Notes under the pieces: model-generated
Told to the model about the DNA's origin: nothing
The model's database searches: none
The model's input: the letters and a program-made list of their open reading frames with translations, nothing else
Translations under genes and position numbers: made by a program
In this document: positions 19,923 to 41,948 of the stretch, piece by piece
Layout: the number at the start of each line of letters is the position of its first letter
How positions within the stretch are numbered: position 1 is the stretch's first letter
DNA from: a virus
Strand: one strand, 5' to 3'
Virus record (IMG/VR): IMGVR_UViG_3300010399_000033
Coordinates: 46,244-110,243 of that record
Length of the DNA stretch: 64,000 nucleotides

Positions 19923-19999
19923 GCGTCGGTAGCCCAATTGGTAGAGGCACTGCCCTCAAAAAGCAGTAAGTGGGAGTTCGAGTCTCTCCCGGCGCACCA
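19923..19999 (+). tRNA. tRNA-Leu(CAA), short variable loop, encoded CCA
   Basis: Cloverleaf: acceptor GCGTCGG/CCGGCGC, anticodon CAA at 19957-19959, T arm GGGAG-TTCGAGT-CTCTC, 3' ACCA. Confidence 0.88.
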
Positions 20000-24164: not shown

Positions 24165-24533
24165 ATGACTCTGCCCGAATCCGTGCTTGTCGGCATACTG
24201 CTTGTGATCTTCCTGGTCGGATTGGGCCTGGTGCTTTCCGGACGTAGACGCTGATGTGGGACATGGCCATGGTGCTGGTTGTGCTTGTCGTGATCCTGTT
24301 CCTGTTGGGGCGTTGAAGCTTCCTATGCCCGCACAGAAACGTGAGTGGTACGACCTCAAGCGCGTTTCACAATCGCCACTCGGTCCAGGAATGTCATGGC
24401 TCACGACTGCGGCGGTTCGCAGCTGCAATCTGTGCGGTGAGGCAATCGACGGCATGGGCGGCCCTGGTCGTTCGATCTGCATCGCTTGTGGCGACGATTT
24501 GCTGGCTGGTCGCTTGCGTGGTCTGGTGAAGCG

Positions 24534-26288
24534 ATGACCATTCGCCAGCGCATATCGCTCGACCCGCCGCGTACCGTGTGGGAGCGCGGCGACTGGCCGC
24601 CGGATTATGTCAAGGTGCTGGCATGGCGGCAGCAACAGCTTGTGCTGATCCGCGAGAACGAGGAACTGAAGGAAGGCGCCCTCGCCTATTACAGCGACGA
24701 GGACCACATCTGCGACTTCATCAACCATTGGGCCGTGACCTATGACCCGCGGTTGGCGATGGACTTGAACCGACTGACCACAATGCCGTTCATCCTGTTC
24801 GGGCGACAGGAGCAGCTGGTCCAGTTCCTGGTCGAATGCCTGATGCTCCAGGAATCGGGGCTGGTCGAGAAGTCGCGCGAGATGGGTGCGACTTGGGTGT
24901 GCATCTGGGTGACCATCTGGCTATGGCGCTTCCGTCCTGGGTCAGCGACCGGCTGGGGCTCACGTGATCAGGACACGGTCGACCACATCGGAGACCCTGA
25001 CTCAATCTTCGAGAAGATCCGCCGTAGCCTCGGCTATCTGCCGACTGAGTTCCTGCCACGTGGGTTCAGCTTCCGCGACCACTGCTCGTTCATGCGGATC
25101 ATCAATCCGGAGAACGAGGCGACCATCACCGGAGACTGCGGCGACAACATCGGCCGCGGCGGCCGCAAGCTCTGGTATCTGAAGGACGAGAGCAGCCATT
25201 ACGTCCACCCCGAGAAGATCGAGTCGGCGCTGTCGGAGAACACGCGCTGTCAGATCGACATCTCGTCGGTGGGCCCGCTGGGCAACGTGTTCAACCGTCG
25301 CCGCGAAGCTGGGTCGGACTGGGCGCCTGGAGTGCAGATCGAACATGGCCGCACGCGTGTGTTCGTCATGGACTGGCGCGACCATCCCGAGAAGGATCAG
25401 GCGTGGTACGATACCAAGCGGCAGAAGGCGGAGGCCGAGGGCCTGCTGCACGTCTTCGCTCGCGAGATCGACCGTGACTACGCCGGCTCGGTCGAAAGCG
25501 TCATCATCCCGGCTGAGTGGGTCAGGGCCTGCGTCGATGCGCACCTCAAGCTTGGAATCGACGTCACAGGCGATCCGTGGCGCGCTGCACTCGATGTCGC
25601 TGACGGTGGCGGCGACACCAATGCGCTGAGCTTGGAGGAAGGCATCGTCCTGCGTCAGGTCAAGGAATGGGCTGCGCGCGATGTCGGCGTCACCACCCGC
25701 CATGTCGCCGAAGTGTGCGGTCCGTACGCGCCGATCGACGTGCAGTACGACTCGGTCAGCATCGGCGCAGCGGTCAAGGCAGAGATCAACCGGCTGATCG
25801 ACGAGAACCAGCTGCCGAAGAACGTCCGCTTTGTGCCGTGGAACGGCGGACTCCCTCCAATCGATCCCGAGGGATATGTGATCCAGCTACCGAACGGGCA
25901 GCCCGACAAGAAATCGCCGAAGTGGAAAAGCTTCGCGCACAATCTCAAGGCTCAGGGTTGGTGGAAGATGCGGCGTCGCTGCCAGATCACTTTCCGCGCG
26001 GTGACCGAGCCTGGTTTCACCTGGGACCGCGAGGACCTGTTCTCGATTGACTCGCGCATTCCCCTGCTGCAGAAGATCATCAAAGAGCTGTCGCAACCCA
26101 CGCATGGTCTGTCGGCGACCATGAAGATGATCGTGAACAAGCAGCCCGAAGGCACCAAGTCGCCCAACATCGGCGACTCGGTCATGATGTGCAATCACCC
26201 GATCACCTCGGCCGGCATCAGGCAGATCCCCGACGCTGCGTTGAAATGGGCTGCCATCGCCGGTGTAGCGCGCAGGGCAATCCGATGA
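24534..26288 (+). CDS. terL: Terminase large subunit
   Basis: EKSREMGATW (Walker A), GRGGR...YLKDES (Walker B), ALDVADGGGD nuclease motif, SPNIGDS. Confidence 0.92.
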   Translation: MTIRQRISLDPPRTVWERGDWPPDYVKVLAWRQQQLVLIRENEELKEGALAYYSDEDHICDFINHWAVTYDPRLAMDLNRLTTMPFILFGRQEQLVQFLVECLMLQESGLVEKSREMGATWVCIWVTIWLWRFRPGSATGWGSRDQDTVDHIGDPDSIFEKIRRSLGYLPTEFLPRGFSFRDHCSFMRIINPENEATITGDCGDNIGRGGRKLWYLKDESSHYVHPEKIESALSENTRCQIDISSVGPLGNVFNRRREAGSDWAPGVQIEHGRTRVFVMDWRDHPEKDQAWYDTKRQKAEAEGLLHVFAREIDRDYAGSVESVIIPAEWVRACVDAHLKLGIDVTGDPWRAALDVADGGGDTNALSLEEGIVLRQVKEWAARDVGVTTRHVAEVCGPYAPIDVQYDSVSIGAAVKAEINRLIDENQLPKNVRFVPWNGGLPPIDPEGYVIQLPNGQPDKKSPKWKSFAHNLKAQGWWKMRRRCQITFRAVTEPGFTWDREDLFSIDSRIPLLQKIIKELSQPTHGLSATMKMIVNKQPEGTKSPNIGDSVMMCNHPITSAGIRQIPDAALKWAAIAGVARRAIR

Positions 26289-27216: not shown

Positions 27217-30200
27217 ATGCTCGATCTCACCAAGGCAGCGAAGCGGCGCATACGCAGGCGTGCAATGCCTGCGATCTCGCGCACGCTGGTTGCGAGGGTC
27301 GCACAGCGCCGGAACGACGAGGTCGCGAGTGCGCGAGAGGCTGCGTACAAGACGATCTTCGCGCCGGCAGTTCACCCGCCGGGGTCGACGCCTGACAAGA
27401 CATTGGCGCAGGACGAAGCCATCGGCGAGTCGCTGGCGTGGTCGGCGGGCAATGCTGTAGCCGCAGCTGGTGCGATCGCAATGTCCTCGGCTTACGCCGA
27501 GGGGATGGCATTCCCCGGTTACGCCTACTTGTCGATGCTGGCGCAGCGGCCCGAATACCGCCGGATGTCGGAGATCCTGGCGCAGGAGATGACGCGTAAG
27601 TGGATCCGCCTGACCTCGTCCGCGTCGGACGACGACAAGCAGCGTGAGGTCAAGATCCGCCAGTTGGCTGACCTGATGGATCGAGTCAAGCTGCGCGATG
27701 CCTTCTGCACTGCTGCCGAGCATGACGGATACTTCGGACGAGGTCACCTGTTCATCGACACCGGCACCGAGGACGACAACGAGCTGAAGACGTCGATTGG
27801 TGATGGTCGCTCGGAGCAGTCCAAGACCAGGGTCGGAACCAAGAACCCGGTCCGCGCGATCCGTCCGGTCGAGCCGGTGTGGGCCTATCCGATCGATTAC
27901 AACAGCAACAATCCACTCAGCGCCAACTGGTATACGCCGAGCCGTTGGTACGTCATGGGCACTGAGACGCACGCCACGCGTCTGCTGACCTTCGCGAGCA
28001 GGCCGGTCCCCGACATGCTCAAGCCCGCCTATTCGTTCGGCGGACTCAGCCTGTCGCAGATGGCCAAGCCGTACGTCGACAATTGGCTGCGCACGCGCCA
28101 GTCGGTGTCGGACCTTGTCCACTCGTTCTCGGTTCAGGGGGTGAAGACCAATCTGCAGGATCTGCTGATGGCCGATGGCGATCAGCTGATGCGGCGGATC
28201 GAGCTGTTCAACCTGTGCCGCGACAACCGCGGTGCCATGCTGCTCGACAAGGAGACCGAGGAGTTCTTCAATGTCGTGACCCCGCTGGGCACGCTCGACC
28301 ACCTGCAGGCACAGGCGCAGGAGCAGATGTCGTCGGTGTCCGGCATTCCGGTGGTCAAGCTGTTCGGCATTACGCCGTCAGGCTTGAACGCTAGCTCAGA
28401 CGGCGAAGTGCGCACGTTTTACGACACCATCCTAGCCAAGCAGGAGCGGGTGTTCAGCTCACACCTGCGCACGGTGCTGTATTTCCTGCAGCTGTCGCTG
28501 TGGGACGAGGTCGATCCGTCGATCACCTTCAGCTGGGTGCCGCTGTGGTCGCTCGACGCAGCCGGCGAGGCCGGCGTGCGTGAGACCGAGGCGCGTACCG
28601 ACGCGACGCTGATCGATGCCGGTGTCATCCGTCCCGAGGAAAGCCGCAAGCGTGTGGCGTCCGATCCGTCCACGCCATACGCCTCGCTCGACGTCGACGA
28701 CGTGCCGATCGACCCGGCCAATGTCCCCGACCTGGAGGAGATTCCGCCGGACCTCGACGCCGCGGCTGGCGGTGGTGGCGGCAAGTCTGCGCCGGGCGGG
28801 AAAGGCAAAGGCGCGGGCGGAAAGCCGGCAGGGTCGCCGCAGGGCCCAGTCGACCATGACGAGGCGGTGCCGGAGCTTGGGGACGACGACGAGGAAGAAC
28901 TCGACGATCTGTCCGACATCATCCCCAAGACGCCGCGCGAGCTGCGCGAGCAGCGCCGGCCCATCCCGCCGGAGGACCGCACCGGTCTGCGCGCGACCCG
29001 CCCCCGCCCTCCCCGCGACGTGACCGCGCGCGATCTCCGCAATGACCGGCGTGCTGCCCGAGGCGCGAACCCGCGCGCTGCGATGGATGCCGAATTCAAG
29101 GAGTCGGACCACCCGCGGAAGGATGACGGTAAGTTTGGCTCTGGCAGCGGTGGAAGCGCCTCGGAACAAAAGAAGCACTACGTTCAGGACATCCCGACCA
29201 CACGTGAGCTTGATGCCTACCAGAAAAGCGTCGATGCGCGGGTGGGAGAAATCGAGGCGGCTGGTGAGGATCACCCGGACAACAGGGAATACGCAGCGCT
29301 TGCGCACATGGCGACGGTGCTGGATGACTACAAAGCCACGCCATTGTCGCAGAAAGCCAACACGCGTGCTGCGTTCCTCGCGGGCAATGGCGGTGTCTTG
29401 GCCGCTGCCGGCATCATGCGCAATGTGAAGAAGGGCGGCACTGCGGAGATCACCAATGTCGGAAGCCTGGAGAAGGGTGGCGGCACTCTGGTCATGCAGA
29501 AGCTGGTGTCGGCAGCACGTGAGAAAGGTGTGCGCGCGATCGATCTGACATCGGAAGCGCGCGAGTTCTACACGAAGCTTGGCTTCAAGCCGGTGGGCGG
29601 TGAGGGCAGCAGCAAGATGCGCCTGGCCCTAGACGAATCCAAGTTCAACGAGATGGACCATCCGCGTGATGCAGACGGCAAGTTCACCTCGGGCGGCGGC
29701 GGTGGCAAATCCGGCGGAGCTGATCCCGACGAGGTCAGCGCAGTCTCCAAGCTGGGAAAGACTATCCTGAGCAAAGCCAAGTCAGCTAAGACGGGCAATG
29801 AATTCTGGGAATCGTTGACCCAGTCCGAGACAGACCATATTGCGGACCATCCGGTGCTTGGGCCGATGCCTGTCGATGCGATATTCAAGCATGCACAGAA
29901 GGTGGATGTTGCATCCGTCAGCCAGTCGATCATTGACAAGGCCAAATTGGCCAAGACGGGAACGGAGTTTGCACAACAGCTGACCAGTGCCGAGATCCAG
30001 GAGCTTGTAGAGGATCCTAAGTACGAAAAGATGGACTGGCATGACATCATGGCGGACCTTGGCGCGGGGTCCAAGCCGGCGGTCAGCCAGGGGATCATGG
30101 ATAAGGTCGCGGCGGCGAGCAGCTGGAAGCAGTTTGCGAACTCGCTGAGCGACGAGCAGATGAACGAGATCGACGCAACGTTCGGCAAGGAGATGCCAAC

Positions 30201-32505
30201 GAAGGAGATCTTCGCGAAGCTTGGAGGCTCGACCGAGGACAAGCTCTCTCTCAGCCAGTCCATCATCGACAAGGCTAATGAGGAGGATAATGTCACCGGC
30301 TTTTTGAATTCGCTGACTGGGGAAGAGTTGACTGAGCTGGAAAAGAAGATTCCCGACTATGACAACATAAGCGGCGGGGAGATCCTGGCCCACGCGAAAA
30401 ACGCGATTGGCGAAGGCGCGAAGGAAGCTGCGGAGAGCATCAATCCGGACATCATGAACAGCACGCTCGGCTTCAAGAGTGTCAATGGGTGGACGTCGGC
30501 GCTGACCGATCAGGAGATCGATGAGCTGAAGAAGTTCTATCCGGACACGGCGACCGGCAGCCCCGAGTCAATCAAGGCTGTATTCGAGGACCTTAAGAAG
30601 AAGGCCGAGGCGGCGCAGGTGCCTCATACTGAGCAGGCAGGCGAGCAGCTTGTGGGTGGCAGCAAGGTGGCCGAGGAGGAGCCGGCCAAGAAGTACAGCT
30701 TCACATTCTCGTCTCCGGAGATGTATCAGCCGTCGTCCAACAAGCACGAGCACCTTGCCAAGTTCGAGAAGGTCATCAGTTCTGCAGCCAAGAACGATGG
30801 AAAGTACCGCGCTCTGCTCAAGAAGCTAATCGACGAGGCGCCGAAGTTTGGCAATGACGGACTGATCGATGGCCTCAAAGGCAAGATGATCGAGTCGTTC
30901 GAGAAGCTGAGTCAGTATTACAGCAACAAGGGCGACGCCGCGCAGGCGGACAAGATCAACGCCAAGGTCGCGCAGATGAAGGCTGCGCATACCAACGAGG
31001 CGGCGAAGTCTAAGCTGAACGCGGAAGTCGCCGCGATCCAGAATACGGAGAAAGCCGCGAAGCCTGCACCGGCCCCCGCGACGTTTGTTAAACCAAACTC
31101 GGCGGCGTTCAAGACCGATTTGGACACGATCGATGCCTCCGGCGGTAGCCACCATTACAAGGGCTTGGCGAAGGCGGTTGCCGGCGCGAGTCATGGCCTG
31201 AGCTTTGCGGACGTGCATGACTCGCTGACCAGCGAGGAGATCAAGGCGGTCAGTGAGAAGTTCGGTAGCGTGGAAACTGCATTTTACAGCGCGATCGACA
31301 ATCCAATTTCCATGTCAAAGGCGGTGCAGGCGTATGCGCCGAAGGGCGAGAAACCTGCCGCTGCTGAGACGAATAAGGCGGCCGAGAGCAGCGCGCCGAA
31401 AGTTCCGGCACCCAAGCTTAGTCAGGGTATCGTCGACAAAGCTAAGGAGATTAGCAATCCGAACAATTGGTACGTGCTGCTGAATGCCGCGCAGAAAAAT
31501 GAGGTGTGGGCGAAGTACACCGATGCAGACGGTGACATGACCCCGGCGATGAAGGTGCAGGCGCACGCGGATGCGGTTGCTGCATCGAAGGCGACATCGC
31601 AGCCTGAGGCGCCCGCGGAAGCTGCGAAGATTGAGGAGAAGAAGCCCGAACCCAAGAAGCCGTCCGGTATCGACCCTGAGCACATTCAGAGCAGCGTCGA
31701 ATCCTGGAAAGCCAACGAACTCAAGGGCGGCAATTGGGAAAAGGAGCAGATGAACAACCTGCTCAAGCAGGTCAAGGATCCGGCCAATAAGGCTGCCCTC
31801 GAGCAGAAGCTCAAGGACTCGCACGAGCTGACCGAGAAGAAGAAGAAGGCGAAGGAAGCCGAGATCCAGGAAGCACAGAAGAAGTATGCGGAGGAGCAGA
31901 AAGCTTCCAATGAGAAGAAGAAGAAAGAAGCTGAGAAGGCTCTGGCCGCGTACAGCAGCGACCCGATCGTTCATCGCCAGCTGAAAGCGGTTGCTGCCAT
32001 TGCCGGGCATGAGAATGTCGCGTCGATGATTGGATATGTGGAGCAGGCACACGCCAAAGCTAAGGGGGCCGGATACGAGGATATGAGCGGCCCCGAGGCA
32101 ATGGCGGTTCAGCTGTACAGTGAGTCGCACTATGCATCGCTCAATGAACAGCTGCGCCAAGGCGCAATGAATGAGAAGAACTACGAATTCAAGCTTGCGC
32201 TGTCATCGGCATTGCAGAAAATGCCGATCCATGCCGGAACGGTCAAGCGTGGAGCTTCTTTGAGTGCACAAGCTTTTGGGCTTTACAAGCCGGGCATGAT
32301 CATTGAAGAACGCGGATTCATGTCCACCTCGACTAACAAGCCGTTCAGTGGTAATTACCAATTCCATGTCGAGAGCAAGACCGGGCGGAATATCAAGAAG
32401 CTTTCTTCCCACTCTAGCGAGAACGAAGTCCTGTTCCCTGCTGGGACTCATTTCAAGGTGACCGAGATCGAAGGCACCACAATTCATATGGAGGAAATGA
32501 CATGA
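27217..32505 (+). CDS. Portal protein (DUF1073-type) fused to GNAT, helical repeats and a C-terminal ADP-ribosyltransferase
   Basis: Portal FPGYAYL..LAQRPEYR, H.TRL, GIP.VKLFGITPSGLNAS; GNAT GGGT.VM..L...A......I.L......FYTKLGF; ART VKRG...FMSTS...ENEVLFP. Confidence 0.9.
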   Translation: MLDLTKAAKRRIRRRAMPAISRTLVARVAQRRNDEVASAREAAYKTIFAPAVHPPGSTPDKTLAQDEAIGESLAWSAGNAVAAAGAIAMSSAYAEGMAFPGYAYLSMLAQRPEYRRMSEILAQEMTRKWIRLTSSASDDDKQREVKIRQLADLMDRVKLRDAFCTAAEHDGYFGRGHLFIDTGTEDDNELKTSIGDGRSEQSKTRVGTKNPVRAIRPVEPVWAYPIDYNSNNPLSANWYTPSRWYVMGTETHATRLLTFASRPVPDMLKPAYSFGGLSLSQMAKPYVDNWLRTRQSVSDLVHSFSVQGVKTNLQDLLMADGDQLMRRIELFNLCRDNRGAMLLDKETEEFFNVVTPLGTLDHLQAQAQEQMSSVSGIPVVKLFGITPSGLNASSDGEVRTFYDTILAKQERVFSSHLRTVLYFLQLSLWDEVDPSITFSWVPLWSLDAAGEAGVRETEARTDATLIDAGVIRPEESRKRVASDPSTPYASLDVDDVPIDPANVPDLEEIPPDLDAAAGGGGGKSAPGGKGKGAGGKPAGSPQGPVDHDEAVPELGDDDEEELDDLSDIIPKTPRELREQRRPIPPEDRTGLRATRPRPPRDVTARDLRNDRRAARGANPRAAMDAEFKESDHPRKDDGKFGSGSGGSASEQKKHYVQDIPTTRELDAYQKSVDARVGEIEAAGEDHPDNREYAALAHMATVLDDYKATPLSQKANTRAAFLAGNGGVLAAAGIMRNVKKGGTAEITNVGSLEKGGGTLVMQKLVSAAREKGVRAIDLTSEAREFYTKLGFKPVGGEGSSKMRLALDESKFNEMDHPRDADGKFTSGGGGGKSGGADPDEVSAVSKLGKTILSKAKSAKTGNEFWESLTQSETDHIADHPVLGPMPVDAIFKHAQKVDVASVSQSIIDKAKLAKTGTEFAQQLTSAEIQELVEDPKYEKMDWHDIMADLGAGSKPAVSQGIMDKVAAASSWKQFANSLSDEQMNEIDATFGKEMPTKEIFAKLGGSTEDKLSLSQSIIDKANEEDNVTGFLNSLTGEELTELEKKIPDYDNISGGEILAHAKNAIGEGAKEAAESINPDIMNSTLGFKSVNGWTSALTDQEIDELKKFYPDTATGSPESIKAVFEDLKKKAEAAQVPHTEQAGEQLVGGSKVAEEEPAKKYSFTFSSPEMYQPSSNKHEHLAKFEKVISSAAKNDGKYRALLKKLIDEAPKFGNDGLIDGLKGKMIESFEKLSQYYSNKGDAAQADKINAKVAQMKAAHTNEAAKSKLNAEVAAIQNTEKAAKPAPAPATFVKPNSAAFKTDLDTIDASGGSHHYKGLAKAVAGASHGLSFADVHDSLTSEEIKAVSEKFGSVETAFYSAIDNPISMSKAVQAYAPKGEKPAAAETNKAAESSAPKVPAPKLSQGIVDKAKEISNPNNWYVLLNAAQKNEVWAKYTDADGDMTPAMKVQAHADAVAASKATSQPEAPAEAAKIEEKKPEPKKPSGIDPEHIQSSVESWKANELKGGNWEKEQMNNLLKQVKDPANKAALEQKLKDSHELTEKKKKAKEAEIQEAQKKYAEEQKASNEKKKKEAEKALAAYSSDPIVHRQLKAVAAIAGHENVASMIGYVEQAHAKAKGAGYEDMSGPEAMAVQLYSESHYASLNEQLRQGAMNEKNYEFKLALSSALQKMPIHAGTVKRGASLSAQAFGLYKPGMIIEERGFMSTSTNKPFSGNYQFHVESKTGRNIKKLSSHSSENEVLFPAGTHFKVTEIEGTTIHMEEMT

Positions 32506-32894
32506 GCAAACCCAGGGACGAGTTCGTTGATCGGACGGATGAGGCGCCACCTCCCGGCATGCTGCCCGACGGCACGCTGAACGTGGTGGAGGAAGGTCCT
32601 CCCTCGCAGGAGGAGGTTGATGCTGATGACCTCAACGAGTACGACGAGCTGTTCGGTATCGGCGCAGGAGCAGAGACTAAGAAGGAACAGAACGAGGTCG
32701 GCTACGTTGGTCCGGACGGCGACCGGCCGAATGGACAGCGTTGCGATAAGTGCACGATGTTCGTTCGTGCAGCTGAGGATGCCTCCGATGATCCCGGCAC
32801 ATGCACCGCAGTCAATGGTCCGATCGACCCGGCCGGGTGGTGTGAGCTATACAAAGCCGAAAGTGAGAATGTGGGCGGGCTCCAAGAGGAGTGA
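32502..32894 (+). CDS. Acidic protein with a C-terminal HiPIP-like four-Cys domain
   Basis: QRCDKCTMF...CTAVNGPIDPAGWC; coupled to the portal-ART stop. Confidence 0.7.
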   Translation: MSKPRDEFVDRTDEAPPPGMLPDGTLNVVEEGPPSQEEVDADDLNEYDELFGIGAGAETKKEQNEVGYVGPDGDRPNGQRCDKCTMFVRAAEDASDDPGTCTAVNGPIDPAGWCELYKAESENVGGLQEE

Positions 32895-32899
32895 CGTCA

Positions 32900-33331
32900 A
32901 TGGCTGCTGCTTTCATGGACTTCCTTATCGTGGTCGTCGGCCTGGGTATCATCGTTGGGCTGATGTGGATCGCGCTCGATAAGATCGGAGGGTTCGATCC
33001 CTTCTTCGTGCAGATAGGCCGCTACGCTGTCGGCGGTGCAGCCGTCCCGCTGTTCCTGTACGCACTCAAGGGCGTGCTGTTCAGCGGCGGCCACGGCGTC
33101 ACCGTCACCCCCGGTGGGGTGTTGGAGTTTGGCATCGGCCTGATTATCATCCTTCTCGTCGTCTACCTGCTGTTCCTGCTGATCGATGCCTTCGTTCCGG
33201 CACCGTTCCAGGGTCCGGTGCGCTATATCGCCGGTGCGCTGGCCCTGATCGCTCTGATGTACGTCGCTGAGCAGGTGCTGGTTGGCGGCGGTCTGGGTCT
33301 GGGCCTGCAGCCCTTTCGACTCAGCCGCTGA
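32900..33331 (+). CDS. Four-TM membrane protein with an internal duplication
   Basis: Two similar hydrophobic hairpins (..RYAVGG.. / ..RYIAGA..). Confidence 0.7.
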   Translation: MAAAFMDFLIVVVGLGIIVGLMWIALDKIGGFDPFFVQIGRYAVGGAAVPLFLYALKGVLFSGGHGVTVTPGGVLEFGIGLIIILLVVYLLFLLIDAFVPAPFQGPVRYIAGALALIALMYVAEQVLVGGGLGLGLQPFRLSR

Positions 33332-33375
33332 CCCTGTTCCGTCAATCTGTCACGGATGCTAGAGAGGAGAACGAA

Positions 33376-33760
33376 TATGGACTTGGACTCTGATCTGAAG
33401 AGGCTGAATAATCGCGTCGCCGCGTTGGAAGCTGCGGCCATCGCGCCGGCAGCCGAGCTTCCGATGGTTCCCAAAACAGGAGTGGCGGCAACTTCGCCAT
33501 TCGACGATCGACTCGCGCAGCTAGAAGGTATGGTAGAGATGCTGGCCACGCATGTTCAGTCGCTGCAGGCTGAGCGGAGCGGGGTTGACGCGTTGGCCGA
33601 TCGCGTCACGGCGTTGGAGGAAGCGCGGAACGCTGTGGCGGCCGATGACGATGACACTGGCGAGGATCCCCTTGGGCTCGAAGCCGGGCCCGAGGGCGAA
33701 GGCGAGCCGCATGAGCGCGAGCACCTCAAGAAATCGAAGACGAAGAAGCACGGGAAGTAA
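33376..33760 (+). CDS. Coiled-coil hypothetical protein
   Basis: AGGAG RBS; RVAALE/RLAQLE/RVTALE repeats. Confidence 0.65.
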
Positions 33761-33765
33761 TTCCC

Positions 33766-34278
33766 ATGCTGTCCGACGCGGCGTCCGTCGCCCTGTTTGG
33801 GACCATCGCAGGATTGGCGACTACTGTGTCGCCAATCATCCTGGCTGTTCTCATGGGACGGCAGCGGCGTCGTGAAAAGGCGGATGACTACGCGCGACAG
33901 GACCAGGTCGCGGAGAAGGCGGCAGCTGCCAACTCGGCGGCTGCTGCGAAGGCCGCGGAAGTGGCTAGCTTGCTGCTGGCCGCAAATGAGCGGGTAGCGC
34001 GTCAGACGTCCGACTTGGCTGCAAAGACGAACTCCAAGATTGATCAGGTTCATGTATTGGTCAATTCCAACTACACACAGGAGATGGAAGCTCGGTTGGT
34101 TGCGCTTGATGCCCTGGTGGGGATGACCGAGGAGGTCGCACGTCTCAATCTGGCGGCAGGTGCGGAACCAACAGAAGCTTCTAAGATCGCATTGGAAAAC
34201 CTGAAACGCACGGCTGAGGGGCTGAGGAAGTCTCTTGCTGAGCGATCGTTGGCCACTGTGGCGGCGCAATTGCAATGA
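33766..34278 (+). CDS. N-terminal TM plus coiled-coil protein
   Basis: Hydrophobic N-terminus; VHVLVNSN motif. Confidence 0.65.
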   Translation: MLSDAASVALFGTIAGLATTVSPIILAVLMGRQRRREKADDYARQDQVAEKAAAANSAAAAKAAEVASLLLAANERVARQTSDLAAKTNSKIDQVHVLVNSNYTQEMEARLVALDALVGMTEEVARLNLAAGAEPTEASKIALENLKRTAEGLRKSLAERSLATVAAQLQ

Positions 34279-35057
34279 AGAATCCCAAGACACTGCGACC
34301 AGTGCAGCCGTCGGCGGGGATCCGCATCGACTATCAGCGCCGGCTGAAGAAACTGATCGACAAGATGCACGAAAGTGTAATTTATTGGCTTAGAGCGGCA
34401 TACCGCGCGGACACACCTCACCTCGCACGTGACGCCTCGCCGGCAACCGAGCTGCAGGCGGCAGTGAGACGTCTGGCCAGGCGGTGGATTAGGAACTGGA
34501 ATGACGCCGCGCCGAAGCTCGCCAAATGGTTCCTGCTCAGTGTGCAGCAGCGGTCGGATAGCACGCTGCATCGTATCCTCAAGGACCACGGCTTCAGCGT
34601 TCAATTCAAGATGACGCCGGAAATGCAGGACGCGTCCACGGCCGTGGTCAAGGCTAACGTGGCTTTGATCAAGTCGATCCCGCAAAAGTACTTCGGACAA
34701 ATCGAGCAGATCGTCATGCGGTCGGTGATGACCGGCCGCGACCTGCAGCAGGCGACGCGCGATTTGCAGCAGCAGTTTGGAGTAGCGCGTCGCCGCGCTG
34801 AGCTGATCGCTACTGACCAGAACAACAAGGCACACTCCGCACTCCAGCACATCAGGCAGCTACAACTGGGGATGACCGAGGGGATCTGGATCCATTCCGG
34901 CGGTGGACGTGAGCCACGGCCCGAACACGTTAAGATGGATGGCAAGCGTTACAAGCTTGCGGAAGGCATGTGGGATCCACATGAACGGAAGTACGTACAG
35001 CCAGGTGAGCTTATCCGGTGCAGATGCGTCCATAAAGCTGTGATCCCGGGGCTGTGA
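34275..35057 (+). CDS. MuF-like head morphogenesis protein (no toxin extension)
   Basis: LIKSIP..Y, RAELIATDQNNKA, W.H.....PRPEH..MDG, PGELIRCRC. Confidence 0.9.
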   Translation: MKNPKTLRPVQPSAGIRIDYQRRLKKLIDKMHESVIYWLRAAYRADTPHLARDASPATELQAAVRRLARRWIRNWNDAAPKLAKWFLLSVQQRSDSTLHRILKDHGFSVQFKMTPEMQDASTAVVKANVALIKSIPQKYFGQIEQIVMRSVMTGRDLQQATRDLQQQFGVARRRAELIATDQNNKAHSALQHIRQLQLGMTEGIWIHSGGGREPRPEHVKMDGKRYKLAEGMWDPHERKYVQPGELIRCRCVHKAVIPGL

Positions 35058-35060
35058 GCA

Positions 35061-35270
35061 ATGCGATGCAGCTACTGTGGATCTAGGCGTCATTCTCTGG
35101 CGTTGTGTCCGAAGACTCATGAGGGCTCTGCTGCCCGCCTTCATCTTCGCTGCGATTATTGTGGTGCTCGCGACCACGATTGTGCAGCATGCCCGAAAAC
35201 AGCGGGCGGTACGGATCGCCGTTCGGGGAAAGTAGACGATCACTTCGTTCTGGATAGAGGACGACGTTGA
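35061..35270 (+). CDS. Tandem CCHC zinc-knuckle protein
   Basis: Two exact CX2CX4HX4C motifs. Confidence 0.7.
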   Translation: MRCSYCGSRRHSLALCPKTHEGSAARLHLRCDYCGARDHDCAACPKTAGGTDRRSGKVDDHFVLDRGRR

Positions 35271-35794
35271 TGGGACTCATGATTGAGGCTCCGGACCGTG
35301 GTCCAATTCCACGTCACTCCGTTCTCACACTGCGGTGCGACGTTCATCCAGGCGGCTTTTTCTCAGCACCGCGTGAGCAGACGTTCACGCGCGGCTGTTT
35401 CACGGATCAGTACAGCGATGCGATGCAGGCGGGGTGGAAGGAAGTCTTCAGAAGTGATCGATTGTTCCTCTGCCCTGAATGTAGCGGCAAGCCGGGAGAT
35501 GGAGCTGTACGACAGTCTGCACCGACGCAGCAGGGAAGCTCTGGACAACATGCCCGTAGGCATCGCGTTGGGAAGCTTGCCAGCAACCGTCATGTTTTGG
35601 GGGCGGAAAGCGCCGACACGGTTCGTCGGATGGATCGAAAAGAAGCTACAAGATCGCGACGACGCTAGAACGCTGTACGGACGCGCAGGACTGGACCCAC
35701 ATCGTTGTGCAGGGCTGATGCGATCGCGCGTTGATTACGCGGCCATCGTGCCTCGTCGCCAAATCCCGATTTCCCTGAAGAAGGAGAGGCTGTC

Positions 35795-36121
35795 GTGACA
35801 CCTCGGCTATTCCCTATCCTGTACCCCAGTCACGAGCTGAAGGACGACGTGTCGCGCTTGTGTCGAGCCGGTCACGCGTTTCTTCTGACCGGCTTTCCAT
35901 GGGATCTGCTGGCCGCGCATGAGGAGCAGGCAATCAAGAATCACGGCCAATCGTTGGCACGCCTTGCTGAGCGCGGTGGACTTGATCCTGAGGAAATGCT
36001 GGCTGTGATGCAGGATCGTGGCGTGCGCTGGCACGGCCTATCAGTGGTCGAGGCGCAGACAGAGCTGTTGAAGATCCTGGTGCGTTCCGGCATGGTGCCG
36101 AGCATCTTCTCTCCTGCATAA
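35795..36121 (+). CDS. Hypothetical phage protein
   Basis: PW.LLA.HEEQA.KNHGQSL.RLAERGGL motif; AGGAG RBS. Confidence 0.7.
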   Translation: MTPRLFPILYPSHELKDDVSRLCRAGHAFLLTGFPWDLLAAHEEQAIKNHGQSLARLAERGGLDPEEMLAVMQDRGVRWHGLSVVEAQTELLKILVRSGMVPSIFSPA

Positions 36122-36207
36122 ATGAAACGGTGGAAAACGTGCATAGCTCTGCTATCGGAAGATTCATTATTGGTCTGTCCCCCATTTCGGGCAGTGAGGA
36201 GAAGTCC

Positions 36208-36489
36208 ATGACTACGGTTTACACGGGCCAGACAGTAATGAGCATGGTCACCCTATCTGGTACTGCGGGAACCGCCCTGACGGCGCCGGGGACGCTTGCG
36301 GGCGATGCGGTGATGCAGGCTTTCGACCTGGTCTCGGGTGCGGATGTGCAGGCTGTGTTGGCGCCTCGCGTACCGGCAGATGGAAAGCTAATGCAGTTGA
36401 CGGCGGACGAGTCTGGTCATTTGGCTCTGGTATTGCTTCGTCGCATGGTGCCGGTTGAGCAGGTGATTGAGCTGGTTCCGGCGATCTGA
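36208..36489 (+). CDS. Hypothetical protein, possibly virion-associated
   Basis: GAGGAG RBS. Confidence 0.55.
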   Translation: MTTVYTGQTVMSMVTLSGTAGTALTAPGTLAGDAVMQAFDLVSGADVQAVLAPRVPADGKLMQLTADESGHLALVLLRRMVPVEQVIELVPAI

Positions 36490-36504
36490 TCCTTCGGGAC
36501 TTCA

Positions 36505-38043
36505 ATGAAGATCGATGATCTGTACAGGGTCCTCGCGCGGGACGCCGATCCTTTGATTGCGGCAGGGCTGGCGCTTGTCTCGCCGGCCGGCCGTGTGCTT
36601 TTTTTGAAGCGCAGTGGAGCCAAGAAGTTCAACGGCGGAATGTGGTGTCTTCCGGGCGGGAAGGCCGAACGCGGCGAGACACCGGTGCATGCCGCCCTGC
36701 GCGAGACCGAGGAAGAAACCGGGTGGACGGCCGGTCCGGATGATAAGCCGCAACGCGCGGGCGCTGTACAGTACTATGAAGTGACCTACATCGTGTTTCG
36801 GCTAAATGTCGCCGAGGAGTTCGTTGCAGATCTGTCGGACGGCGAGCACACCGAGTATGCGTGGGCATCCCCCGACGATCCGCCGCAGCCGCTGCATCCG
36901 GGATTGGGCGAGGTGCTCCCGCAGCTGGCGGCAGACGAGGACTTCCGCGCCAGTCGCGACAAGATGGCGAACGCGGCACGCGATCTGATTGAGCGCAAGG
37001 TTGCAGCTCAGGATGCGAAGGGCGAGTCCGAGCACCGTATCGTGATCGAGTTCAATGGCGACTTCGCCATGGGTGAATTCATTCGTACCCTGCAAGCTTT
37101 GGGATCATGGGGCGCATCGCGCAATGTCGATATTTCTGTGGAGGATGTTGGAACACGCCAAGAGCTGGAGGGTAAGGGATTCCGGACCAAGTTTGGCTGG
37201 GACGGCGATGGTGCGGACAAGATCGTCTCTGCTGAGCTGGATGGACAAGACCTCCTCGCGATGGATGCGGACTTCGACGAAAGCAAGCATCCACGCGACC
37301 ACGGGAAGTTCTCGTCTACATCTGGTGGAAGCGGCGAGGAACCGACGCCGAAGGCCAAGAAGCAACAGGCAATCGATCCAGCCAAGATGAAGAAGGTCGG
37401 GTCGCAGATGGGCTCCAATCCCGGAGGAGTTTATGAGGATGCGGATGGGACCCGCTTCTACGTCAAGAAGGGCAAGTCTCCCGAGCATGTGAAGAACGAG
37501 CTTGCTGCGGCCGATCTCTACGCCCTCGCTGGATCCCCGACGCTGGAATACACGCCCACCACCAGCGGTGACTACATCGCGACCAAAATGTCGAAGCTCG
37601 ACAAGCCGCGCGCCGATCAGTTCTCCCCGGATGAAAAGAAGAAAGCGCAGGAAGACTTCGCCACGCATGCTTGGCTGGCAAATTGGGATGCAGCGGGACT
37701 TGACTTTGACAATGTTGGCACGGTTAGCGGAAAGCCGACGGCCCTTGATCTTGGCGGCGCGATGCTCTACCGCGGAATGGGTGCCCCCAAGGGCGACAAG
37801 TTCTCGGCGCAAGCTGGCGAGTGGGACAGCATGCGCAATTCGCAGGTCAACCCGCAAAACGCGAAGCTGTTTGGAGGCATGTCTCCGGAAGCTTTGAAGA
37901 AGTCAGCCAGCAAGGTCGCCAAGATTCCCGATGACGCGATCCGTTCTGTGGTTCAGAAACGCGGTCTTCCCGCAGCGGTGGCTGACAAGTTGATCTCGCG
38001 CAAGAACGATATTGCAAAACGTGCCGGACTTGGGAGTGTGTGA
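36505..38043 (+). CDS. Nudix hydrolase fused to a small middle domain and a PI3/4-kinase/HipA-like kinase domain
   Basis: Nudix box [23 protein letters not shown]; GSNPGG...FYVK...NE...WLANWD....DN...ALDLG. Confidence 0.8.
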
Positions 38044-39689
38044 TGGCTACCTTGGCGATGGATGAGGGCATGGCTCGGATCTTCCGTCGACCGAATGACC
38101 AACTGGCATTTGATCGGAAGTCGGTTCGCACGATTGATGCTGATGGGCGCCTGCATGTCAGTGTAGCCAATATCAGCAAGGCTTGCGTCAACCCGTACAT
38201 CGGACGTGAGATCCCCGGATGGAAGGAGCTTGGACTCGATTCGAGCAAGATCTATTACCTGCTGCGCGATCCCAAAGAGCTGGAAAAGGGCGCAGCCACA
38301 TTCAACAATCTGCCGCTGCTCGACGAGCATAAGCCAGTCACCGCCGACGATCATGACAAGGAAAGGACTGTGGGGTCGACTGGCACTGATGCGGTCTTCA
38401 ATTATCCGTATTTGCAGAACTCGTTGGTGGTGTGGACACGTGAGGCCATTCAGGGAGTCACGTCAAAGAAGCAGAGACAGCTATCGTCAGCATACCGCTA
38501 CAAACCTGACATGACGCCGGGTGTGTGGGAGCCGACTGGTGAGCGTTACGACGGCGTCATGCGCGATATCATCGGAAATCACGTCTGCCTCGTGGAGGAA
38601 GGGCGTGCAGGAGCCGACGTTGTGGTCGGCGATAGTGCAGAGGAGCTAGCCAAGATGGCGAAGGCAAGCAAGAAGGCGACTGCGACGCGGCTGGGCCTCA
38701 TGGCGTCGGCCACGATCGCGTACACGGCGCTGCCGTACACGCTCGCACAGGATGCGAAGCCGCTGACGGCCATGGATATCATGCCGTGCTTCAACGGCGT
38801 GACGGCGAAGAACTGGAAGGACAAGAAGCCCGAGGTGGCCAAGAAGCTGGCAGCGCTGCTCAAGCCGCGCTACAGCAATTACGCGCAGGACGAGGGCGCG
38901 ACTCCGGACGACGTGACATTGAAGCTGCTCGACATGCTCGATGGCGGCCAGCCCGATGCGATGGGTGAGTCGATCGACGAGTCGGTCAGTGAGCCGCAAC
39001 ACAATGCTATGGAAGCGGCGGCGGAAGGTCACTCGAACCTCGGAATTCCGCAGGAGACCGGCAAGGAATTCGTCAAGAAGGACGCGGCCAAAGATGAAGG
39101 CGGTGTCGAAGCGGAAATCCTCAAGTTTCTGTCTGACAAGCTCACCCCCGAGGATTTGGAGCTGATCAAGGGGATGTTGGCGAAGGAGGACGAGGCCGAG
39201 GAAGCGGCCGGCGGTGAGGGTGAAGGTGACCCTGTCGTCAATGAAAACCCCGACGAGGAGAAGGCTCAGGACGAGCCGCCGCCGTTCAAGGGACGTCCCA
39301 ATCCCGGCGGCGCGATGGACAATGAGGAGAAGGAGAAGGACATGGTCACGAAGACCGCGATGGATGCGGCTATCGAGGATGCGGTGAAGAAGGAGCGTGT
39401 TCGGCAGGGCAAGATCCGCGAGGCGTTCGATGCGGTCGCCCCGTATGTCGGCCGGCTGCAGATCGCGGCCGACTCCGCTGACGATGTGTACGGCGCTGCG
39501 CTCAAGAGCCTGGGCGAGGACATCAAGGACATCCCCCCGGCGGCGTTTCCGCATATTCTCAAGCATTACCCGCGTCTCGATGCCCGGCGCACCGGTACGC
39601 GTCAGATCGCGCAGGATAAGGCTGAGGGCGCGACCAAGTCTTACGGCGAGATGTTCCCGCAGGCGGGCCGCATCACGCGCGTGGGCTGA
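38040..39689 (+). CDS. DUF2213 head maturation (protease/scaffold) protein
   Basis: [41 protein letters not shown]; acidic scaffold-like C-terminal half. Confidence 0.88.
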
Positions 39690-40832: not shown

Positions 40833-41948
40833 ATGAACCTTCAGGAAGCCAGGGACCTGTGGGAGGCTCACCGGCCCCTTCACGAGAGCCGCGGTGCATA
40901 CATGCGTGGCGTTCGGATGTATGTGCCCGACGAGTGGAAGCACAACTACGATCTCGCCTGTGACGCGATGCCTGAGTTGGCCATGGATGCGCAGGCGACG
41001 ATGCAGACCGATGCGAACTCGGCTGTGCCGCTGATCCTCACCACCATGATCGACCCGTCGGTGTTCAAGGTGCTGTTCGCACCCAACAGGGCGGCCGAGA
41101 TCTTCGGCGAGCAGCGCAAGGGGACATGGCTCGACGAGACCGCGATGTTCCCGCAGGTCGAGCACACCGGCGAGGTCTCCAGCTACGGAGACTTCAACAA
41201 CAACGGCCGTGCTGGCGTCAACACCAACTGGCCCCAACGCCAGAGCTATCTGTTCCAGGTGATCAAGAAGTACGGCGAGCGTGAGCTTGAGCGCGCCGGA
41301 CTCGCCCGCATCAACTGGGTCAGCGAGATCGACGAAGCTGCCGCGACCGTGATGAACAAGTTCAGCAACTACACCTATTTCTTCGGGGTGTTGGGGCTGC
41401 AGAATTACGGTCTGTTGAATGACCCTGGTCTGTCGGCGGCACTCACTCCGGCAACCAAGGCGGCCACCGGCACTGCATGGCTCAATGCTGCCGGAATTCC
41501 TGTCGCCACCGCGAATGAAATCTATGCCGACATCCAGGCCATGTTTTGGCAGATGCAGGTACAGACCGCGGGCCTGGTCACCGCCGAAGACAAGATCGTC
41601 CTGGCGATGGCTCCGACCACCAGCGTGGCGCTGAAGACCACCAACAGCTTCAACGTCAACGTCTACGACTTGCTGAAGAAAAACTTCCCCAATATCCGCT
41701 TTGAGACGGCGGTGCAGTACGGGGCGCAGACGGCCGGCAATCCGCAGGGAGTTGCGGCCGGCAACATGGTGCAGATGTTCGTGGAGTCCATCGAAGGACA
41801 GGACACGGGCTACTGCGCCTTCAACGAGAAGGCACGCTCGCACCCGATCATCCGGCAAGTTTCCTCCTTCGAGCAGAAGCAGACGGCCGGAACGTGGGGA
41901 GCGATCATCCGTATGCCGTTCGCCCTGGTCCAGATGATCGGCGTTTGA
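40833..41948 (+). CDS. Major capsid protein (DUF2184-like)
   Basis: KGTW, GEVSSYGDF, RQSYLFQ...YGERELE, NYGLLNDP; gene position. Confidence 0.88.
   Translation: MNLQEARDLWEAHRPLHESRGAYMRGVRMYVPDEWKHNYDLACDAMPELAMDAQATMQTDANSAVPLILTTMIDPSVFKVLFAPNRAAEIFGEQRKGTWLDETAMFPQVEHTGEVSSYGDFNNNGRAGVNTNWPQRQSYLFQVIKKYGERELERAGLARINWVSEIDEAAATVMNKFSNYTYFFGVLGLQNYGLLNDPGLSAALTPATKAATGTAWLNAAGIPVATANEIYADIQAMFWQMQVQTAGLVTAEDKIVLAMAPTTSVALKTTNSFNVNVYDLLKKNFPNIRFETAVQYGAQTAGNPQGVAAGNMVQMFVESIEGQDTGYCAFNEKARSHPIIRQVSSFEQKQTAGTWGAIIRMPFALVQMIGV

Follow-up and report, generated by a model that had tools for sequence, protein, structure and literature searches.

A conserved peptide behind predicted head-protease sites marks enzyme modules of two fusion proteins in the head gene block of an uncultured phage

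Phage T4 packages its internal proteins and the ADP-ribosyltransferase (ART) Alt by means of a capsid-targeting sequence that is cut by gp21 after an acidic residue, and the trimmed cargo is injected with the DNA; the targeting sequence precedes the cut and is then discarded. Ejection proteins of phiKZ and SPN3US are cut by gp175 and gp245 (PMC9958956, PMC10052503). Besides, packaging and injection have been proposed for polyvalent proteins, large products of genes linked to head genes in which ART, NUDIX, GNAT, kinase, RNase and further conflict domains are combined, and which include portal fusions and a NUDIX domain fused to the capsid-processing protease; a zincin-like MPTase domain, frequent but not obligatory, is the proposed processing enzyme (Iyer et al., 2017, PMC5512222; Iyer et al., 2022, PMC9503650). 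MuF polymorphic toxins of temperate phages use a head protein as carrier of swappable C-terminal toxic domains (Jamet et al., 2017, PMC5576092). Effectors fused to a portal or to MuF are known, as are polyvalent proteins and injected proteins that a protease has trimmed. Here, we analysed a stretch of 64,000 nucleotides (the window), which is the final 64 kb of the 110-kb IMG/VR virus record IMGVR_UViG_3300010399_000033 from an uncultured phage. Two proteins of its head gene block, a portal fusion and a NUDIX-kinase protein, carry three copies of a shared peptide (the tag), each between a predicted site of the head protease and a Gly/Ser linker that leads into an enzyme-bearing module. We propose with moderate confidence that the head protease of the phage frees these enzymes within the capsid and that they reach the host together with the DNA. 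The two proteins are built as follows (window coordinates):

27217-32505, + strand: portal fusion protein, 1762 amino acids (aa), one open frame; portal, linker, cut site and tag 1, GNAT, cut site and tag 2, repeats, ART
27478-28839, + strand: portal domain, aa 88-541 (PF06381, E 1e-72, aa 103-462; phrog_146, E 2e-98)
29077-29088, + strand: predicted protease site 1 (A-A-M-D, aa 621-624), with D624 as the expected last residue before the cut
29089-29163, + strand: tag 1 and Gly/Ser linker; 51 bits with the tag hidden Markov model (HMM); predicted local distance difference test (pLDDT) 40-55, flexible
29179-29622, + strand: GNAT-fold acetyltransferase-like module (PF00583, 21.9 bits, just over the cut-off of 20.7)
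29623-29634, + strand: predicted protease site 2, L-A-L-D, aa 803-806, a variant of the A-M-D site
29635-29712, + strand: tag 2 and Gly linker; tag HMM 43 bits
29764-30621, + strand: five repeats of about 55 aa (SQSIIDKAK...F..SLT..E..EL), with a sixth copy from aa 1405 (about 31429-31600)
32056-32496, + strand: Arg-type ART domain, aa 1622-1753 (PF01129, E 4e-11; PF03496, E 1e-9)
36505-38043, + strand: NUDIX-kinase protein, 512 aa; NUDIX, small domain, cut site and tag 3, kinase-like domain; its stop overlaps the protease start (TGATG)
36556-36927, + strand: NUDIX hydrolase domain, aa 18-141 (PF00293, E 2e-19; Nudix box intact)
37255-37266, + strand: predicted protease site 3, L-A-M-D, aa 251-254
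37267-37338, + strand: tag 3 and Ser/Gly linker; tag HMM 42 bits
37357-38040, + strand: protein-kinase-like domain with Gly loop GSNPGG, YVK Lys, NE, NWD..DN and LDxGG

In translation, the portal fusion reads AAMD-AEFKESDHPRKDDGKF-GSGSGGS at 29077-29157 and LALD-ESKFNEMDHPRDADGKF-TSGGGGG at 29623-29706, and the third tag-bearing stretch lies at 37255-37332 in the NUDIX-kinase protein. An earlier note on this DNA had placed a motif of about 20 aa at these three positions, always at a domain boundary and followed by a Gly/Ser linker. Translation and the HMM, built from 73 non-redundant tags that all stem from other phages, reproduced the positions exactly, and the domain assignments confirmed the boundaries and the linkers around all three copies: portal, GNAT and repeats plus ART are separated in the first protein, and NUDIX plus small domain and the kinase-like domain in the second. 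The best further HMM match in six frames of the whole 110-kb genome had 6 bits, compared to 42-51 bits at the three sites, and a regular-expression search in all six frames found no further real copy. At the DNA level, the three tags diverge at most synonymous (third-codon) positions and share no identical run longer than about 8 nucleotides. These differences rule out a pure or recent DNA repeat as the origin of the tag, and the peptide itself is therefore under selection. Both structure models predict the tag to be flexible (pLDDT 40-75).

The enzymes next to the tags could be assigned with the help of profiles and predicted structures. The model of the GNAT module, with a core pLDDT of 80-90 and top Foldseek matches that are all GNATs, confirmed a predicted GNAT fold with an acetyl-CoA loop. 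For the ART, the translation shows the R, STS and ExE motifs, and the closest solved relatives are 6dre/6drh (PAAR repeat-containing protein, E 1e-13), followed by Vis, XopAI and ExoS/T. We take 6dre/6drh to be the type VI secretion system effector Tre1. The C-terminal domain of the NUDIX-kinase protein has no family in Pfam, but its model (pLDDT 91, predicted template modelling score 0.82) confirmed a predicted bilobal protein-kinase-like fold; the best Foldseek match is CtkA of H. pylori (3akl, E 1e-5), then JAK2, APH and PknB. Its K, D, N and D, including the catalytic Asp/Asn and the metal-binding Asp, are invariant across 31 relatives, as is the Gly loop. The GNAT, ART and kinase-like identities suggested earlier were thereby borne out, while the set of three has to be extended by a fourth enzyme, the NUDIX hydrolase upstream of tag 3. 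A small domain without assigned family lies between NUDIX and tag 3. The repeats and a following Lys/Glu/Ala-rich stretch, presumably helical, span about 750 aa from tag 2 to the ART; the GC content of the repeat region is down at 0.57 with a strong AT skew, and nothing in Pfam or PHROG matches the repeats of about 55 aa.

The tag is widespread. A profile search in a library of 1.84 billion representative proteins or clusters gave 3,286 matches at E<=1e-3, with a maximum of 17 copies in one 7,334-aa protein, and a viral contig scan confirmed 120 loci with 1-6 copies per open reading frame (ORF), 80 of which were retrieved. Throughout 68 multi-tag proteins of the global library, the core is conserved as an aromatic residue, x, E, x, x, HPR, x3, G, K/R and F, and the 2-4 residues ahead of the aromatic vary between proteins. 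The universal tag is a 16-residue peptide with the core [FW]xE[SE]xHPRxxxG[KR]F and a Gly/Ser linker. The 'AxD' that had been counted as part of the tag thus does not belong to it: it is a lineage-specific predicted protease site, and the universal tag begins at the aromatic residue. Similarity of the residues ahead of the tag is higher within proteins (0.29-0.39) than between them (0.10-0.18), but variable positions inside the tag give a similar ratio, and we do not count this as evidence for cut sites because internal duplication confounds it.

In nearly all cases, the tag separates an effector domain from a portal or head domain or stands N-terminally on stand-alone proteins, and in 27 of 37 non-redundant proteins a portal domain stands ahead of the first tag. 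The 77 segments downstream of tags comprise ART, TopoIB, NUDIX, DUF2213, LPD3, zeta toxin, GNAT, InPase, PBECR3, ddrB-ParB, 2H, PI3/4-kinase, HipA-like and SAM lyase domains, and RNases are also found among the effector domains behind the tag. Phage-type polyvalent proteins have this same domain set (Iyer et al., 2017, PMC5512222); a sample of 60 library matches showed the same phage-type repertoire, with zero conjugation domains. Taken as the HMM search and table of downstream domains that the earlier note had suggested, these data show that, in other phages, the tag is strongly enriched where domains of head-module proteins meet, and the lack of enrichment that would have spoken against the proposal was therefore not observed. 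Many proteins elsewhere carry the tag 2-20 residues after the initiator Met, so that an N-terminal tag looks like the working form, which cutting of the fusions would recreate. The tag is found alongside more than one portal family (PF06381, Mu, lambda) and more than one head-protease family (DUF2213, XkdF-type S78_2, Mu-like_Pro) and is therefore not the determinant of one protease. The partners of the kinase module vary among relatives (ART, protease, TopoIB, MuF), and there tags lie directly on both flanks. Among cultured phages, the tag is carried by Pseudomonas phage Orimi01, as portal-tag-ART, and by Burkholderia phage vB_E436/phiE131 and relatives, as portal-tag-PBECR3; the underlying tblastn search of cultured phages with the short tag is insensitive and returned 8 records at E<=1. 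The polyvalent protein gp47 of phi24B, which is present in virions by mass spectrometry (bioRxiv 10.64898/2026.04.10.717836), was ruled out as a model, as it has no tag. No model of Pfam, PHROG or NCBIfam lies over the tag stretch and no PDB chain contains it, and we found no description of it in the literature on the motif, on DUF2213 specificity and on processed portal fusions. By these papers and databases the tag is apparently undescribed, and the cassette of site, tag, linker and enzyme was likewise not found in them.

In comparison with the described systems, the two proteins resemble phage-type polyvalent proteins in that unrelated effectors are combined in one polypeptide (portal, GNAT and ART; NUDIX and kinase-like domain) and are encoded among the virion genes of a portal-terminase phage, in one case fused to the portal. 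Unlike polyvalent proteins, each module here is headed by a universal tag with a predicted prohead protease site in front of it, and there is no MPTase: Pfam gave no match to MPTase-PolyVal or any other metallopeptidase in either tag-bearing protein. A term search within PMC5512222 turned up no recurrent junction peptide. The likeness to MuF polymorphic toxins consists of a head-protein carrier, swappable C-terminal toxic domains and a small downstream gene. However, the carrier here is the portal, and MuF itself is short and toxin-free; a junction motif is not mentioned in PMC5576092. As in T4, enzymes including an ART would, in our reading, be loaded in the prohead, trimmed by the prohead protease after an acidic residue and injected. 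In contrast, the conserved peptide of our phage lies behind the predicted cut and the cargo would keep it, which leaves the comparison with T4 targeting made in the earlier note a mere analogy. The sequences are not similar, and the tag is shared by many types of head module instead of one phage group.

The case for cutting at the junctions builds on the protease and the capsid protein of the same head block:

38040-39689, + strand: fusion of a DUF2213 head maturation protease and a scaffold-like tail (PF09979, E 3e-46; phrog_2229, E 4e-116)
40833-41948, + strand: major capsid protein (phrog_264, E 4e-63)
40977-40988, + strand: L-A-M-D of the capsid protein, aa 49-52, predicted propeptide cut; aligns with the E217/KPP12 cleavage site

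A motif [A/L]-A-[M/L]-D stands directly ahead of the tag at all three sites. In the protease-scaffold, A-M-D occurs at aa 6-8, 244-246, 425-427 and 440-442, namely at the N-terminus, just past the protease domain and twice in the tail (four seen vs 0.08 expected, P 1.5e-6), and a rough gene set of the genome has 11 A-M-D tripeptides, 7 of which fall in the portal fusion, the NUDIX-kinase protein, the protease-scaffold and the capsid protein. In the capsid proteins of related DUF2213 phages, the aligned position is occupied by (L/I/V)-A-M-D with A or S behind it, and the scaffolds of these phages contain several A-M-D. In PB1-like phages, which encode a homologous DUF2213 protein, the mature N-terminus of the KPP12 capsid protein as determined by Edman degradation lies immediately after A-M-D (PMC3474789), and the cryo-electron microscopy model of the E217 capsid protein starts at residue 66 (PMC10329688); a cut after the Asp of A-M-D is thus demonstrated in that lineage. 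By homology, a cut is expected at the capsid LAMD of our phage, and by identity of the site it is expected, with good support, at the three junctions. Cleavage at AxD, as put forward in the earlier note, hence gains support from the KPP12 Edman data, the E217 model, the homologous DUF2213 protease and the aligned capsid LAMD. The likeness to KPP12 and E217 lies in the DUF2213 protein and the A-M-D at the aligned capsid position. Protease and A-M-D site are present in E217, AP22 and Aeromonas phage 51, but tag and tagged cargo are absent from them, and the portal extension of E217 is untagged, in contrast to the tagged portal fusion described here. A-M-D also occurs around residues 54-72 in the portals of E217, Aeromonas phage 51 and AP22, and residue 97 is the first one in the E217 portal model; these portals may be trimmed N-terminally as well. 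The window portal has AIAMSS at the matching place, without Asp.

Besides its place behind the predicted cut sites, the tag is also a joint for cassette swapping. The frame of the portal fusion recurs in a 98%-identical relative from a different metagenome (IMGVR_UViG_3300005467_000044, hereafter L004). Over aa 1-823 of the portal fusion, the identity is 98.4%, and L004 has one added cassette consisting of a tag plus 166 aa. The tags flanking this cassette share an identical core of 36 nucleotides, and the DNA of tag 2 in the window is a hybrid with the 5' part of one L004 tag and the 3' part of the other. To judge from these sequences, gain or loss of a cassette within the tag separates the two phages. 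The extra cassette (L004:4086-4583) encodes a 166-aa domain without Pfam match.

According to the reading that we favour, each junction is a cassette in which a head-protease site is followed by the universal tag, a Gly/Ser linker and, as the fourth part, the enzyme. The portal fusion would build into the portal vertex with its C-terminal extension within the prohead. Portal C-termini point into the head interior, so that the portal-borne modules would be freed in the head, in about 12 copies each. Synthesis of the NUDIX-kinase protein would be coupled to that of the protease-scaffold through the stop-start overlap. In relatives, NUDIX, tag, kinase and DUF2213 form one chain joined by an A-Q-D or T-M-D stretch; together with the TGATG overlap, this suggests that the NUDIX-kinase protein may enter the prohead with the protease-scaffold. 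DUF2213 would then cut after the Asp of A-M-D in the capsid propeptide, in its own scaffold tail and at the three junctions. The predicted products of the portal fusion are the portal (aa 1-624), tag-GNAT (625-806) and tag-repeats-ART (807-1762), and those of the second protein are NUDIX with the small domain (aa 1-254) and tag-kinase (255-512). Trapped in the closed head, the freed enzymes would enter the host with the DNA and, early in infection, would acetylate, ADP-ribosylate and phosphorylate targets and hydrolyse nucleotides. Junction cutting, packaging of the second protein and delivery are steps that we infer. For the tag, our best guess is a handle that each free cargo needs, be it to load unfused cargo into the prohead or to lead the exit via the portal/tail channel. 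That the HPR..GKF peptide is a portable signal across lineages, necessary and sufficient for head loading or for exit through the portal/tail channel, is a tentative and rather doubtful extension of this guess.

Several points weigh against this reading. The role of DUF2213 as the protease is deduced from annotation and the invariant His/Ser/His (H97, S149, H181), and we found no assay establishing it. Other DUF2213 phages have just small-x-D ahead of the tag, not A-M-D, which makes cutting there less certain. The second protein has no known head anchor, its packaging therefore being a guess, and portal-fused modules would need no loading signal. A complex prediction with protease-scaffold, MuF and tag peptide scored 0.00 and carries no weight either way.

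Three other explanations have to be weighed against proteolytic release and delivery. If the fusions stayed uncut, tag and linker would serve only as a conserved flexible joint: each enzyme would remain tethered to the portal in twelve copies, cassettes could recombine, and there would be no free tagged cargo. Such a joint would be consistent with the predicted flexibility of the tags and with the portal extension of E217, which manages without any tag, and recombination in the tag accounts for the cassette difference from L004. However, all three tags have a full four-residue match to the capsid and scaffold cut site ahead of them, the peptide is conserved though its DNA diverges, stand-alone proteins with nothing to tether to are headed by the tag as well, and an enzyme tethered to the portal would be unable to exit the head; we regard uncut fusions as quite improbable. 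Still smaller are the chances of a tag that serves the protease solely as primed-side recognition element, makes the junction cleavable and has no later role. Although in this phage the tag always follows directly on the predicted scissile bond and is unstructured like protease substrates, the capsid and scaffold sites do without it, and it is found with unrelated head-protease families and different portal families. Moreover, in some proteins it lies 2-10 residues after the Met, where there is nothing to cut off.

The tag could also act in the infected cell and not in the capsid, by docking the enzyme on a conserved host component, by controlling its stability or by activating it after delivery. 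The core is near-invariant across phages that differ in portal, protease and capsid protein, which fits a partner conserved outside the phage, but no host-binding motif was recognised in the tag and no solved structure contains it; we consider such a role unlikely.

The genes around the two fusion proteins form a co-oriented head block of TerL, portal fusion, MuF, protease and capsid protein. Its remaining members are:

24486-26288: large terminase (TerL)
34275-35057, + strand: MuF head morphogenesis protein, short toxin-free form, 260 aa, PF04233 domain only (PF04233, E 2e-14; phrog_324, E 3e-79)

The portal fusion is followed by four small ORFs, MuF, three small ORFs, the NUDIX-kinase protein, the DUF2213 protease-scaffold, a minor head protein and the major capsid protein. 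The MuF core R..H...DGK.Y recalls the HPR..DGKF of the tag, but has another spacing and no HMM match, and the likeness is probably due to chance. Directly downstream of the portal fusion, a small acidic ORF of 130 aa (32502-32894, + strand) overlaps the stop of this ART-bearing gene with its start (ATGA). It has four cysteines (Cys4, C-x2-C-x16-C-x13-C), ends in GWC..Y and matches the HiPIP family of Pfam with 21.9 bits, just below the cut-off of 22. A HiPIP-like protein is unusual for a phage head module; as the ORF sits where an immunity or partner gene of the ART would, it is possibly a partner or inhibitor of the ART. In the interval between this ORF and MuF (32891-34278), the ORF at 32891-33331 is strongly hydrophobic and membrane-like, and those at 33356-33760 and 33766-34278 are coiled-coil-like; none of the three has a family match. 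One tRNA-Leu (CAA) gene lies upstream of the head module (19923-19999).

Phage-injected proteins and the way they are selected are known for few model phages. A short tag on cargo modules in thousands of phage proteins would allow a listing of candidate injected effectors from sequence, and could serve as a handle by which proteins of choice are loaded into phage heads. The cassettes also provide a concrete model for the disassembly of polyvalent proteins, in which an ordinary head protease would do the cutting and its sites could be read from the capsid protein; the A-M-D rule gives exact predicted fragment ends for this phage and its cultured relatives. If the tag were indeed a portable signal, any protein bearing it would be deliverable by many unrelated phages, and the thousands of tagged proteins would be a catalogue of injected effectors.

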